Below, in pieces: positions 17,131 through 24,414 of a DNA stretch of 64,000 nucleotides. Both the position numbers and the translations under genes were made by a program. Under the pieces are notes generated by a model. That model saw only the letters and a list, made by a program, of their open reading frames with translations, had not been told where the DNA came from and did no database searches. The stretch is from Phycisphaerales bacterium (GTDB taxonomy: Bacteria > Planctomycetota > Phycisphaerae > Phycisphaerales > UBA1924): the NCBI GenBank assembly GCA_035628115.1, contig DASPKL010000004.1:13001-77000 (forward strand), given 5' to 3'. Positions within the stretch are counted from its first letter, which is position 1, and the number at the start of each line of letters is the position of its first letter.

Positions 17131-18126
17131 ATGCCCACCGACATTCTGACGGACACAACCCGGGCGCGGACCACGCTCCGCGCCGCACGGGCGTCGGCGG
17201 TCGCGGCGATCCTCTCCAGCATGCTCCTCGGCGCGGGCGCCGCCCGCGCCGACGAGGGGTTTGCGCCGGCGGCGCCGGGGATCTGGACGACGCAACGCCC
17301 CGCGAACGCGACGGACGGCGAGCGGTTCGGCTCGAGGGCGGTCCTGCGCCCGAGCCAGGACGCGTTCATGGGTTTCGCGGTGCCGACCGTGATCCAGGAG
17401 GTCCTCGTCCGGAGCGGCGAGCCCGTGAAGAAGGGCGACCTGATCGTGCGGGGCGACGACGTGGAGGAGGAAGCGCTGCTGCGCATCCACCGCGAGCGCC
17501 TCCGCCGGCCCCTCGCCGTCGAAGAGGCCAAGGCGCAGATGGACTTGGCGCAGGTCGAGTACGAGCGCATCCTGGAACTCGAGAAGAAGAGCGCCTCGGG
17601 CACGCAGGAAGTCGAGCGTGCCCGGCTGAACGCCGTCGTCGCGAAGCTGCGCCACGAGCTCGCGCTGAGCGAGCGCACGCAGGAGGAGATCCAGCTCGAC
17701 TGGCGGCGGGCGCGTGTCGAGAAGTACCGCGTCGTCGCGCCCTTCGACGGCATCGTGGACACGGTGGTTCCCGACGTCGGGCAGATCGTCAACGAGAACG
17801 AGAAGATCGTGCGCGTGGTGGACGTCGACCCCCTCTGGATCGACGTGCCGGCGCCGATGAACGCGGCGGCGACGCTGTCGCTCGCGAAGGGCGACGCCGC
17901 CTGGGTCCTCTGCCCCGCGCCCGGCGGCGCGACGGTGTACGAGGCGCGCGTGATCGAGGTCGCGCCGACGGCGGACGCGGCGAGCTCGTCGCGCCGTGTG
18001 CGCGTGGAGGTCGCGAACCCGGACGGGCCGCACCGGCTGCTCGCGGGCCAGAACGCGTGGGTGACCTTCGAGCGGCCGCGCGGCCTGCCGGCGGCGACGG
18101 CGCGCGGCGCGGAGGCGAACCGGTGA
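17131..18126 (+). CDS. membrane-fusion (HlyD/RND-adaptor family) protein
   Basis: 331 aa with a signal/anchor AILSSMLLGAGAARA and a lipoyl-like hairpin VIQEVLVRSGEPVKKGDLIVRGD ... RVVAPFDGIVD. A coiled-coil segment lies between the two halves. Confidence 0.8.
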   Translation: MPTDILTDTTRARTTLRAARASAVAAILSSMLLGAGAARADEGFAPAAPGIWTTQRPANATDGERFGSRAVLRPSQDAFMGFAVPTVIQEVLVRSGEPVKKGDLIVRGDDVEEEALLRIHRERLRRPLAVEEAKAQMDLAQVEYERILELEKKSASGTQEVERARLNAVVAKLRHELALSERTQEEIQLDWRRARVEKYRVVAPFDGIVDTVVPDVGQIVNENEKIVRVVDVDPLWIDVPAPMNAAATLSLAKGDAAWVLCPAPGGATVYEARVIEVAPTADAASSSRRVRVEVANPDGPHRLLAGQNAWVTFERPRGLPAATARGAEANR

Positions 18127-22380: not shown

Positions 22381-24414
22381 GTGACCGTCCTGCCCACGAG
22401 CACGTCCGCGATGACCGGCTACGCGGCGCTCTACGAGTCGCTTCGCAGCCGCAAGTCGCGCTCGCGGGTGCCGTCCGGCCTGGACAGGCTCGCGGTGCGG
22501 ATCGCGGTGGCGCGGGACGAGGCGCGGCTGCGGCCCGCCCGGGTGCTCGCGCGGGCACGCGCGATCGCGGCGCTGTCGCCCGGGTACAAGAAGATGTCGG
22601 ACGGCGCGCTCGACCACACGCTCGCGGAGATGCGCGATGTCTTCCTGCGCGGGCGGCAGACGCCCGAGCACGTGGACAACGCGCTGGCCATGGTGCGCGA
22701 CCTCGCGCGGCGCGAGACCGGGGAGGAGCCCTTCCCCGTGCAGATCATGGCGGCGCTTTCGCTCTACCACGGGCGCATCGTCGAGATGCTCACGGGCGAG
22801 GGGAAGACGCTGACGGGCTCGCTCGCGGCGCCGCTCATCGCGTGGCGGCGCCGGCGGCTCCACGTGCTGACCGTGAACGACTACCTCGCGCAGCGCGACG
22901 CGGAGTCCCGCCGGCCCATTTTCCGGCGCTGCGGCCTGCGCGTGGGCGCCGTGGTGCAGGAGACCCCGCCGCAGGAGCGGTTCGACCTCTACGCACGCGA
23001 GATCGTCTACACGACGCCCAAGCAGGTCGTGGCCGACTGGCTGCGCGACCAGCTCCGCCTCGGCCGTGCGGCGACGCCGTGGGCGGCGCGGGCGCTCGCG
23101 GCGATGCGCCCCGGCGCCGACGGCGAGCAGGGCGTGATGCCGATGGTCCCGGGCCTGCACGCGGCGCTGGTGGACGAGGCCGACGCCGTGCTCATCGACG
23201 AGGGCGTGGTGCCGCTGATCATCGCGAGGTCCCGCCGCGAGGATGACATGGCGCAGGTGTACAAGGAGGCGTGCGCCGTCGCGCCGCGCCTGGACGAGGG
23301 GCCCGATTACGAGGTCGACTACCTCCGCCGGCGCGTGAAGCTCAAGCCCCGGGGCGAGCACCGCCTGCGCGGGTTCCTCGACGAGCTGCTCGCCGCGGGC
23401 GGCCAGCCCATCTGGCGCGCCAAGAAGCGTGCGGAAGAACTCATCACGCAGGCGCTCGTCGCCCGGCACTGCTACATCGGCGGCCAGCAGTACCAGGTCG
23501 TCGACGGCAAGGTCGTGATCGTGGACGAGTACACCGGCCGCTTCCTGCAGGACCGGTCCTGGGAGCACGGCCTCCACCAGTCCGTCGAGGCCAAGGAAGG
23601 CGTCGAGGTGACCGCCGACCGCGAGACGTTGGCGCGTCTCAGCTTTCAACGATTCTTCCGCACGTACCCGTTCCTGTGCGGGATGACCGGCACCGCCGCG
23701 GACGCGACGCCGGAGATCAAGGCCACCTACCGGCGCGCGGTGATGCGCGTGCCGACGAACCGGCCGCTGATCCGCGAGCAGTGGCCGACGCGTGTCTTCC
23801 GCTCCCAGCGCGACAAGTGGGGGGCGGTCGTCGATTCGATCGCGCTGCTGCGCGGGCGGGGGCGGCCGGTGCTGGTCGGCACGCGATCGATCGCCTCGTC
23901 CGAGCACCTGTCCAAGCTCCTCGAAGCGCGGCGCATCCCGCACCAGGTGCTCAACGCCAACCACGACAAAGAAGAAGCCGAGGTGATCGTCCGCGCGGGC
24001 AAGGGCGGGCCCGACGCGAGCGTGACCGTCGCCACCAACATGGCCGGGCGCGGCACCGACATCAAGCTCGACAAGGCGGCCCGCGAGGCGGGCGGCCTGC
24101 ACGTCGTCCTCACCGAGATGCACGGCGCGCTGCGCATCGACCGGCAGTTCATCGGGCGCGCCGGGCGTCAGGGCGACCCGGGCTCGGCCCAGGTCTTCGT
24201 GAGCCTCGACGACGAACTCTTCGCCAAGCACGCCAAGTGGGTCGCGCGCCTCGGGCGCGGGCGCCTGCGTCGGACAGAGCTCACCGGCCTCCCGGGGGCG
24301 GACGCCGTGCTGCGTCTCGTGCAGCGCCGGAGCGAGGCGCTGGCGCGCCGCAACCGCGCGGCCGTCCTTGCGCAGGACGAATGGATCGACAAGCACCTGC
24401 CCGGGATGGGCTGA
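22381..24414 (+). CDS. SecA-like DEAD-motor ATPase, C-terminally truncated paralog
   Basis: GTG start 1 nt after the upstream TAG. SecA signatures are MLTGEGKTLT, TVNDYLAQRD, LVDEADAVLIDEGVVPLII, MTGTAADA, GRPVLVGTRSI, HQVLNA, TVATNMAGRGTDIKL and GRAGRQGDPGS. Only about 70 aa follow the last motif, so the helical scaffold, wing and C-terminal domains of canonical SecA are missing. Confidence 0.85.
   Translation: MTVLPTSTSAMTGYAALYESLRSRKSRSRVPSGLDRLAVRIAVARDEARLRPARVLARARAIAALSPGYKKMSDGALDHTLAEMRDVFLRGRQTPEHVDNALAMVRDLARRETGEEPFPVQIMAALSLYHGRIVEMLTGEGKTLTGSLAAPLIAWRRRRLHVLTVNDYLAQRDAESRRPIFRRCGLRVGAVVQETPPQERFDLYAREIVYTTPKQVVADWLRDQLRLGRAATPWAARALAAMRPGADGEQGVMPMVPGLHAALVDEADAVLIDEGVVPLIIARSRREDDMAQVYKEACAVAPRLDEGPDYEVDYLRRRVKLKPRGEHRLRGFLDELLAAGGQPIWRAKKRAEELITQALVARHCYIGGQQYQVVDGKVVIVDEYTGRFLQDRSWEHGLHQSVEAKEGVEVTADRETLARLSFQRFFRTYPFLCGMTGTAADATPEIKATYRRAVMRVPTNRPLIREQWPTRVFRSQRDKWGAVVDSIALLRGRGRPVLVGTRSIASSEHLSKLLEARRIPHQVLNANHDKEEAEVIVRAGKGGPDASVTVATNMAGRGTDIKLDKAAREAGGLHVVLTEMHGALRIDRQFIGRAGRQGDPGSAQVFVSLDDELFAKHAKWVARLGRGRLRRTELTGLPGADAVLRLVQRRSEALARRNRAAVLAQDEWIDKHLPGMG

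Follow-up and report, generated by a model that had tools for sequence, protein, structure and literature searches.

A truncated SecA-like ATPase, an M50-type protease fusion and membrane fusion proteins in a widespread module of proposed type I-like function, with giant LEPR-XLL proteins as its suggested cargo

The closest described relative of the locus discussed here is a gene cluster reported by Kamneva, Poudel and Ward (PLoS One 2015; PMC4452313), who identified "secondary SecA_DEAD domain proteins" that lack the wing/scaffold domain and that are present besides canonical SecA. They are encoded together with GAF+HlyD, Peptidase_M50+HlyD and HlyD/biotin-lipoyl proteins, sometimes also with an OEP (TolC) protein, and without an ATP-binding cassette (ABC) transporter. 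It was proposed that the SecA_DEAD protein serves as the ATPase and the M50 protein as the membrane part of a secretion system resembling type I secretion systems (T1SS). The study names no cargo and makes no use of the terms giant, adhesin or large protein. Here, we analyze a four-gene operon (genes g1 to g4, positions 17131-24414) in a 64-kb window, that is, the whole 64,000-nucleotide stretch of contig DASPKL010000004.1 of a Phycisphaerales bacterium. This operon is a further member of the module that was already known in silico, and the new part of our analysis is the pairing of this machine with a candidate cargo signal, the LEPR-XLL motif found at the N-terminus of giant proteins.

The window operon carries the same four protein types as the 2015 module, namely a SecA_DEAD protein without wing/scaffold domain, an M50-like protein fused to HlyD, a GAF-like protein fused to HlyD and a separate HlyD-type membrane fusion protein (MFP), and the same hypothesis on ATPase and membrane part applies to it. 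We therefore regard its membership in the module of Kamneva et al. as almost certain. An earlier note on this DNA had stated that no characterized system of this composition was known. The composition as such had been published from computational data in 2015, but the statement stands with respect to experimental characterization, of which we found none in the searchable literature. Likewise, the note's proposal of a processing and export machine in which SecA takes the place of the ABC ATPase is still the best reading and gains support from the comparison of genomes, though the idea is already contained in PMC4452313, and export is something that we infer. What is added to the 2015 description is the link to LEPR-XLL giants, two further recurrent proteins (DUF3467 and SapC), a much wider distribution, the invariance of the catalytic motifs and a uniform point of truncation in the SecA-like protein. 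The link between a cargo signal and the machine is found neither in the 2015 description nor in the other literature that we retrieved. This literature is small, in that LEPR-XLL itself is mentioned only twice and in passing (subscription journals and NCBIfam curator notes being outside the reach of the search).

The module is conserved far beyond the Phycisphaerales. A search for the pattern NPL[LM][RK][FY]D[GA]Y in the GTDB, with each species represented by a single genome, yielded 563 confirmed loci. The best 80 of these were analyzed by comparing the window proteins with all open reading frames (ORFs) in blastp; individual loci are referred to below by L numbers. The 80 loci span at least eight phyla. 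They include Planctomycetota, Verrucomicrobiota, Lentisphaeria, Nitrospirota, Desulfobacterota, Myxococcota, Spirochaetota and one metagenome-assembled genome (MAG) of the Flavobacteriales, as well as Alpha-, Beta- and Gammaproteobacteria with cultured representatives such as Pseudomonas, Marinobacter, Marinobacterium, Mesorhizobium, Xanthobacter, Labrenzia and Puniceibacterium. Further carriers that are amenable to experiments are Methylobacterium extorquens AM1 (META1p2399-2402), Pseudomonas sp. MMS21, Marinobacterium mangrovicola DSM 27697, Labrenzia alba and Ensifer adhaerens. Planctomycetota have the genes arranged as g1-g2-g3-g4, and the arrangement g2-g3-g4(-g1) is that of Verrucomicrobiota, Nitrospirota, Desulfobacterota, Myxococcota, Spirochaetota and the three proteobacterial classes. 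Thus, g1 precedes g2 in Planctomycetota and comes after g4 in most other phyla. Where at least 2.2 kb of sequence is available past g3 (69 loci), the SecA-like gene is the next gene in 62 cases (approximately 90%). An ABC-ATPase signature (Walker A…LSGGQ…Walker B) is present in only two of the 80 loci, in both cases more than 6 kb away from the module. The four-gene set is thus co-conserved in other genomes, and no ABC or resistance-nodulation-division (RND) partner lies next to it there. These results run counter to two of the outcomes that, according to the earlier note, would have spoken against a dedicated machine, namely a lack of co-conservation and an ABC or RND partner that is always adjacent elsewhere. 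Two close relatives retrieved by exact-protein look-up, L001 and L002, carry the same four genes, and in L001 (GCA_046350475) a gene of the FGE-sulfatase family (6630-7721) is inserted between the g2 and g3 homologs.

Two further proteins recur at these loci. In at least 21 loci (for instance L003 6726-7046, L092 17681-17977 and L093 17857-18138), the gene immediately before g2 encodes a soluble DUF3467 protein of approximately 100 amino acids (PF11950), which so constitutes a fifth recurrent component. Its gene is positioned between the giant gene, to be discussed below, and g2; five Planctomycetota loci have it between g1 and g2 instead. The window operon does not encode this protein, and a search of its profile against the PDB sequences gave nothing meaningful. 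A SapC-family protein (PF07277, 1e-72) is found in or beside the module in nine loci (for instance L004 11245-12066; also L030, L078, L046, L054, L073 and L084). According to a 2026 preprint, SapC and TolC are also neighbors of Cag_663 and Cag_665, two giants without a signal in Chlorobium chlorochromatii (bioRxiv 10.64898/2026.03.19.712371).

One protein that sets the module apart from a T1SS is the product of g4 (22381..24414, plus strand; 677 amino acids, or 667 if translation starts at the ATG at 22411). It has Pfam matches to SecA_DEAD (270 bits), SecA_PP_bind (77 bits) and P-loop_SecA (171 bits), and it has both nucleotide-binding domains (NBD1 and NBD2) together with the preprotein cross-linking domain, with only some 76 amino acids left past motif VI. 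The wing domain, the two-helix finger and the C-terminal tail are absent, and the alignment to B. subtilis SecA covers residues 23-550 only. The protein falls below the cut-off of every NCBIfam model for SecA and SecA2. Against the housekeeping SecA models (TIGR00963 and NF009538), it reaches 498-501 bits where 800-814 are called for, and the alignment stops at model position ~490-606. Against the SecA2 models, the values are 413 versus 725 bits (TIGR04221), 403 versus 930 (TIGR03714), 449 versus 1085 (TIGR04397) and 359 versus 1100 (NF012136). Among 69 SecA-like homologs from many phyla, the Walker A sequence GEGKT and the DExD motif are invariant, motif V is likewise invariant or nearly so, and the arginines of motif VI are present in 68. 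The tail past motif VI measures 66-81 amino acids in all 39 SecA-like homologs listed. Because the tail is uniform and the ATPase motifs are conserved, the truncation is a property of the family rather than a sign of decay, and the description of this protein in the earlier note as a truncated SecA-like ATPase proved correct. Judging from these alignments, we take g4 to be a fixed, family-wide truncated paralog and not a degraded housekeeping SecA.

That g4 might nevertheless be the housekeeping SecA of the organism, located beside adaptor genes by chance, which is close to the third outcome that the earlier note had named as a refutation, could be read from the JGI annotation of many of its homologs as "preprotein translocase subunit SecA". 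We give this idea practically no credence. The protein lacks the scaffold, the wing, the two-helix finger and the C-terminal tail, it stays below all equivalog cut-offs (501 versus 814 bits), and both the truncation and the gene neighborhood are kept across phyla, including in Pseudomonas, Mesorhizobium and Marinobacterium, which are well known to possess a canonical SecA. Furthermore, PMC4452313 found such proteins in addition to canonical SecA. Other annotations of this family differ again, the names given to its truncated members being "prepilin peptidase" or "DEAD/DEAH box helicase" in RefSeq/PGAP and "hypothetical protein" in many MAG records. Examples of mislabelled proteins are those at L003 11204-13120, L004 12059-14083 and L093 22133-24118, all of which are SecA-like in NCBIfam scans at E ~1e-175.

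The second unusual protein is encoded by g3 (20205..22379, plus strand; 724 amino acids), for which family matches and an AlphaFold2 (AF2) model indicate a fusion of three parts. These are a cytoplasmic PqqD-like domain of the type that acts as RiPP recognition element (RRE; RiPP, ribosomally synthesized and post-translationally modified peptide) at residues 19-102, a multi-pass domain resembling M50/site-2 proteases (S2P) at ~117-446, and a periplasmic MFP part with an alpha-hairpin at 448-721. The PqqD match lies above its cut-off (28.1 versus 23.4 bits), and HlyD_3 and HlyD_D23 are matched as well, while Pfam Peptidase_M50 remains below threshold (19.4 versus 27.2 bits). The assignment as a protease is carried by the two site-2-protease motifs. 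The zinc-binding and catalytic motif HEFGH occupies residues 210-214 (20832..20846, plus strand), and its H210, E211 and H214 are invariant in 34 homologs of 30-50% identity as well as in 45 close homologs. The second motif, NPLMKFDG (residues 308-315; 21126..21149, plus strand), carries the third zinc ligand, an aspartate, and its N308, P309, L310 and D314 are invariant in the 34 diverse homologs; it is to this stretch that the pattern which yielded the 563 loci corresponds. Both the PqqD-like domain and the M50-type protease that the earlier note had recognized in this protein are thus borne out. The AF2 model (predicted local distance difference test score, pLDDT, 82.8) has approximately ten transmembrane helices and an MFP fold, with an N-terminal domain of three strands and three helices (residues 26-98). 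The family is large, comprising 4283 clusters at 50% identity (E<=1e-30), nearly all of them with a length of about 715 amino acids.

The presence of an RRE together with an HExxH protease raises the question whether the operon matures and exports a small peptide in the manner of a RiPP system, with the RRE and the protease processing a short precursor and the MFPs exporting it. Consistent with this, g3 matches the NCBIfam model daptide_HExxH (NF041824) at E=8e-53 and, more weakly, YydH/LiaK (NF058609, the family of the epipeptide protease YydH) at E=1.7e-5, it has the PqqD domain, and NCBI names its homologs "PqqD family peptide modification chaperone". However, the scores are far from the equivalog cut-offs (180 versus 300 bits and 25 versus 225 bits, respectively), and the partner ATPase has a preprotein-binding domain. 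The earlier note had suggested looking for a small precursor gene, but none is evident in the operon or in its flanks (the DegT and S41 genes described below), and neither a conserved precursor nor a radical-SAM or other modifying enzyme was seen in the window or the annotated loci, although no systematic scan for conserved small ORFs was made. The conserved neighbors are instead giant proteins, DUF3467, SapC and TolC. A RiPP-type function thus appears improbable to us.

The remaining two genes encode adaptors. The product of g1 (17131..18126, plus strand; 331 amino acids) is a periplasmic adaptor whose N-terminus carries a signal or anchor (…AVAAILSSMLLGAGAARA↓DEG) and which has a long coiled-coil hairpin; it matches TIGR01730 (RND_mfp) with 123 bits against a cut-off of 94.9 as well as HlyD_D23 and HlyD_3. 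The product of g2 (18123..20201, plus strand; 692 amino acids) has an HlyD match and is predicted to have two cytoplasmic alpha/beta domains of GAF-like appearance (residues 1-420), one transmembrane helix (~425-443) and a periplasmic MFP part (445-692). Its AF2 model (pLDDT 87.2) has the two alpha/beta domains followed by an MFP with an alpha-hairpin. In Foldseek, the C-terminal part of g2 matches MacA, MexA and AcrA at E 3e-15, and the MFP part of g3 matches AcrA, MexA and MacA at about E 1e-11. These searches used the whole-chain models of g2 and g3 and returned MFP structures only. The hairpins of g2 and g3 have equal length in the models, with 27+27 residues each. HlyD-type MFP modules in three of the four proteins, as proposed by the earlier note, are thus supported by family matches and, for g2 and g3, by modelled adaptor folds. 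Its GAF label for g2 holds only in part, since this copy has no Pfam GAF match, but GAF is matched in 20 of 48 orthologs (46-67% identity; GAF_2 in 12, GAF_3 in 5), and the AF2 model has alpha/beta domains at this position. A search of the N-terminal region of g2 against the PDB sequences gave no match.

No gene for an ABC, RND or major facilitator superfamily (MFS) pump, nor for an outer membrane factor, was found among the window ORFs scanned, which, as regards the pumps, agrees with what the earlier note had said of the operon. The sole ABC-type match in the window is an unrelated ABC-3 permease (60950-61798). Furthermore, no SecY-like, SecY2 or Asp genes were seen near the operon, and no other SecA_DEAD gene is present within the window. 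One might still suppose that the operon belongs to a tripartite efflux system for small molecules or lipids whose pump is encoded elsewhere, with the SecA-like and M50 proteins as accessories. Indeed, all three MFP modules score best against adaptors of the RND, MacA and CusB type, and the top Foldseek matches are MFPs of drug efflux. However, MFP families cannot be separated by cargo at such a level of similarity, a pump gene is not adjacent in the 80 loci, and efflux would explain neither why an MFP is fused to a protease nor why the pairing with a preprotein ATPase is constant. We consider this highly improbable.

What, then, could be transported? A suggestion comes from the neighbors of the module. 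In about 25 of the 80 loci, giant ORFs (more than 1,500 amino acids visible) lie within 2.5 kb of it, and all adjacent giants with a readable or annotated N-terminus (11 of 11) carry the LEPR-XLL motif. Of these, seven have their N-terminus inside the fetched locus DNA, and all seven have the sequence [LF]E-x-[LF]EPR-x-LL(S)AD; they come from Nitrospira (L021), Chthoniobacteraceae (L023 and L080), Planctomycetaceae (L052), Limisphaerales (L053), a deltaproteobacterium (L072) and Marinobacter (L082). The others are encoded on four annotated alphaproteobacterial plasmids, on which the module is located directly downstream of the giant gene. The plasmid giants measure 8.8k amino acids in Methylosinus sp. 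C49, where NF012209 (LEPR-XLL) matches at the N-terminus, and 12.9k in Pseudosulfitobacter, 4.0k in Thalassospira marina and 10.6k in Pontibrevibacter, which PGAP annotates as "LEPR-XLL domain-containing protein". The two plasmid-giant N-termini that were fetched (L006 and L007) read …LEPRFLLSAD… and …LEPRVLLNAD…, and NF012209 matches them with 30-31 bits against a cut-off of 17. The motif is located ~40-60 amino acids from the start of the adjacent giants, which are repetitive and range from 1,500 to more than 12,000 amino acids; the six that were scanned are cadherin, Big_9, LamG and DUF4347 proteins. This context suggests that giants with an N-terminal LEPR-XLL motif are the cargo of the module. 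Apart from these giants, a 325-amino-acid ORF divergent from g1 in a Phycisphaerales MAG (L042 6701-7678, minus strand) has an N-terminal …IETLEERRLFAAL… motif and could be a small cargo of the LE-x-R type.

Taken together, we interpret the operon as the core of a T1SS-like, envelope-spanning machine for export and processing, with a SecA motor and an M50 protein in the position of the ABC transporter, and we would give this reading a probability of roughly 0.5. All its steps are deduced as follows. The cargo would be large, unfolded and free of a classical signal peptide, and it would have a basic N-terminal leader ending in LE-x-R-x-LL ("LEPR-XLL"). The cytoplasmic PqqD-like RRE of g3 might bind this leader, as RREs bind the leaders of RiPPs, and the SecA-like motor might clamp the chain by means of its preprotein cross-linking domain. 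Driven by ATP, the motor would then feed the chain, N-terminus first, into a conduit made up of the transmembrane domain of g3 and the transmembrane helices of g2 and g1, and the M50 active site would cut off the leader. In the periplasm, the MFP modules of g1, g2 and g3 could form a mixed ring that connects to a TolC-type channel whose gene would lie elsewhere in the genome, and the cytoplasmic GAF-like domains of g2 may gate or regulate the machine.

The conserved catalytic centers, the equal hairpins of g2 and g3, the TolC genes inside the module in some loci (L003, L005 and L092), the absence of ABC partners and the adjacent giants are all consistent with such an export machine. Blastp of the loci with two alphaproteobacterial TolC queries gave four weak hits, a search too insensitive to yield a frequency. 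It is also consistent with the proposed mechanism that the SecA-like protein has lost exactly those parts by which SecA engages with and is regulated at SecYEG. In its most specific form, which we put forward tentatively and with rather less confidence than the general reading, the module would be a SecA-driven pathway of the type I kind present in at least eight phyla. In it, the RRE would read the LEPR-XLL signal, the M50 protease would cut, and giant adhesin-like cargo, in size up to more than 12,000 amino acids, would be threaded N-terminus first through MFPs and TolC without SecYEG or an ABC transporter, with DUF3467 and SapC as accessory cytoplasmic proteins.

The window itself contains a candidate cargo. 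Its largest ORF, 26 kb downstream of the operon, is open from 50751 to 58781 (2676 amino acids) on the plus strand, and the likely start is the ATG at 50814 (50814..58781; ~2655 amino acids; third-position GC content, GC3, 0.96). It has no Pfam or NCBIfam match, no RTX match and no classical hydrophobic signal peptide. About 47 amino acids after the likely start, it has the sequence VESLESRQLLEG (50955..50990, plus strand), which is an LE-x-R-x-LL motif and a variant of LEPR-XLL. Within the window, the strict regular expression LE-x-R-x-[LVMIF][LMFIV] has no other match that falls in a true coding frame, and the chance expectation, using the background rate from ORF bodies, is 0.0026 per N-terminus of 150 residues. 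A relaxed version of the expression was dropped because of false positives such as the DegT protein. In three metagenomic homologs with 32-33% identity, MEQLEARILLGG is found at the aligned position and forms a conserved island in an otherwise divergent basic leader. From its sequence, the giant is the best candidate for a cargo in this window, and the motif is a plausible variant signal; the link of this giant to the operon is putative. An OPT-family oligopeptide transporter gene (58808-60949) begins on the same strand 27 nucleotides past the giant ORF.

Several observations weigh against an export machine of this kind or against its proposed cargo. With respect to the window giant, NF012209 gives no match (E<=10), the motif does not rank among the top 10 of a position-specific scoring matrix (PSSM) derived from nine module-adjacent LEPR motifs, and it lacks the proline and the SAD of the LEPR-XLL consensus. 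We have therefore rejected the giant as a member of the LEPR-XLL (NF012209) family, and we call its motif a variant because it is conserved in orthologs but missed by both the model and the PSSM. Neither in the window nor in the closest Phycisphaerales relatives does the module lie beside a giant gene, and no TolC/OEP match was found among the scanned window ORFs. The motor is not always co-encoded, since six loci (L005, L016, L061, L082, L087 and L092) have g2 and g3, and usually g1, without an adjacent SecA-like gene. These variants include Azospirillum brasilense p2, Thalassospira marina pCSC3H3 and Marinobacter suaedae, and L005, L082 and L092 among them also carry TolC and/or an adjacent giant. 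M50 proteases are not known to act as conduits for polypeptides. Furthermore, later functional work on the module was not found in the searchable literature (subscription journals being outside its reach). Finally, the giant of L021, one of the six scanned, has C-terminal RTX (HemolysinCabind) repeats, as does a LEPR-XLL giant of Vibrio (PMC10868602), such that export by a classical T1SS is possible for those proteins that have such repeats.

Gene adjacency is equally compatible with a processing or regulatory role, and this leads to an alternative in which the giants are exported elsewhere, for instance by an ABC-type T1SS, and the module cuts or holds the LEPR-XLL segment in a manner resembling LapD/LapG. 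The GAF module would then be a sensor, and the SecA-like ATPase would extract or unfold the anchor. Such a device would agree with the classical function of M50/S2P enzymes, which is regulated intramembrane proteolysis, with the GAF-type sensor module in the g2 family, with the loci that have no SecA-like gene next to the module, and with the C-terminal RTX repeats just mentioned, which are typical of ABC-T1SS cargo. However, genes of the lapEBC type are normally adjacent to those of their giant substrates, and there is no ABC exporter beside the giants in 78 of the 80 loci. Also, three MFP modules with hairpins of the type that docks on TolC, together with the TolC genes within the module, argue for a duct, and an ATPase with a preprotein clamp is kept in ~90% of the loci. 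A device for processing or release is hence unlikely in our estimation.

The export of proteins of 5,000-30,000 residues without a Sec signal or a nearby ABC exporter is an unsolved problem on which the module bears; the giants of Chlorobium chlorochromatii, for example, "lack known signals" (bioRxiv 10.64898/2026.03.19.712371). The module is widespread, with members in many phyla and thousands of clusters of the M50 fusion, yet it is mis-annotated, its proteins going under names such as prepilin peptidase, helicase, hypothetical protein or generic efflux adaptors. If the link to the cargo is true, a sorting signal, LEPR-XLL, and the machine that reads it form a concrete pair open to testing. 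Such a link would also mean that there is a natural SecA motor that acts away from SecYEG, and that site-2-type proteases and RRE domains have a new role outside of RiPP biosynthesis. For the window, the prediction is that the giant ORF at 50751-58781 encodes an operon-dependent surface protein.

With respect to the operon itself, the window has a G+C content of ~70%, and the database proteins nearest to those of the window come from Phycisphaerales (Planctomycetota). GC3 is 0.9-1.0 in exactly the frames assigned to the four genes between 17131 and 24414, and the frame switches at the junctions, with the first frame running from 17131 to ~18120, the second to ~22380 and the first again to ~24414. 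By this pattern, all four plus-strand genes are real, and the long ORFs on the minus strand at 17124-20216, 20220-22403 and 22300-24396, as well as a long plus-strand ORF at 13947-17123, were discarded as high-GC shadow ORFs.

The close packing of the genes that the earlier note had reported is largely as described, with gaps of -4, 3 and 1 nucleotides and no spare intergenic room. The TGA stop of g1 overlaps the GTG start of g2 in the sequence GTGA (18123-18126), and a GGAGG lies 7 nucleotides 5' of this start, which coincides with that of the public call P0241 (692 amino acids, 100% identical). Between g2 and g3, the sequence is TGA-CCG-ATG (20199-20207), giving the 3-nucleotide gap. The 1-nucleotide gap between g3 and g4 is present as TAG-C-GTG (22377-22383), but the public call for g4, P0001 (667 amino acids), starts later, at the ATG at 22411 and not at the GTG at 22381, such that the gap is either 1 or 31 nucleotides. 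The close spacing supports co-transcription and translational coupling, while the stronger term co-translation, which the note had used, is not borne out.

The operon is bounded on its 5' side by a divergent gene for a DegT-type aminotransferase (15831-17024, minus strand), with which it shares an intergenic region of 106 nucleotides (17025..17130), the putative operon promoter. On the 3' side lies a convergent gene for an S41/CtpB-like peptidase (24418-26223), which ends 3 nucleotides past g4. The divergent DegT gene is syntenic in eight related Phycisphaerales loci. Since this synteny is confined to close relatives within the Phycisphaerales, we treat it as local and have rejected DegT as a part of the system. 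Directly downstream of the S41/CtpB-like gene are three tandem ORFs of 320-390 amino acids (26224-29347, minus strand) without a Pfam domain, two of which match PEP-CTERM weakly at their C-termini (E 0.0013 and 0.033). Further away, a low-GC island (36000-42000; 0.59-0.61 versus ~0.70) contains Pycsar-like anti-phage genes, one with a cyclic nucleotide-binding (cNMP) domain and a CAP12/Pycsar TIR effector domain (36831-37724, plus strand; PF10137, 4.5e-27) and one for a PycTM effector (40887-41438, minus strand; PF18967, 1.7e-13). Several ORFs beside them have no Pfam match, and there is no tRNA gene in the window.

How does the module compare with better-known systems? Like the classical T1SS (HlyBD-TolC, or LapBCE-LapA with LapG/LapD), it would pair an MFP ring with a TolC-type channel, and the giant cargo of such systems is likewise repetitive, unfolded and without a Sec signal, and is encoded beside the transporter genes. 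In the Lap system, moreover, a dedicated protease acts on the N-terminus of the cargo (reviewed in PMC8277102), as is proposed here for g3. The module differs from a classical T1SS in that a SecA-type motor is found instead of the ABC transporter, that it has three different MFP modules, and that its signal is apparently N-terminal (LEPR-XLL) and not C-terminal. Thus, of the features of a classical T1SS, the MFP is present, whereas the ABC transporter and a cargo with C-terminal signal or RTX repeats are not. As compared to the Lap system, the protease is an intramembrane M50 enzyme fused to an MFP, whereas LapG is periplasmic. With the tripartite pumps (MacA, AcrA, MexA), the periplasmic parts of g2 and g3 share the adaptor fold with its alpha-hairpin, but there is no RND, ABC or MFS pump, and the adaptors are fused to a protease in g3 or to cytoplasmic GAF-like domains in g2. 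The use of two adaptor species in one machine has a precedent in TriA/TriB of TriABC-OpmH.

A second SecA paralog that serves a subset of cargo is also familiar from the accessory SecA2 proteins of mycobacteria and from SecA2/SecY2 of Gram-positive bacteria. However, SecA2 retains the scaffold and the two-helix finger and works with SecY or SecY2, whereas g4 lies far below the SecA2 cut-offs. Its domain content equals that of the E. coli SecA N68 "DEAD motor" fragment, which lacks the regulatory C-domain but keeps both nucleotide-binding domains and the preprotein cross-linking domain. Finally, in RiPP systems such as those of the daptide protease MpaP (NF041824) and YydH/LiaK (NF058609), a PqqD-like domain lies N-terminal to a multi-pass HExxH protease as it does in g3, and a short conserved N-terminal motif is a plausible recognition element in their leaders as in the giants beside the module. 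In contrast to these peptidases, g3 scores below the equivalog cut-offs, is fused to an MFP and is paired with a SecA-like ATPase, and its neighbors are giant proteins rather than precursors and tailoring enzymes.

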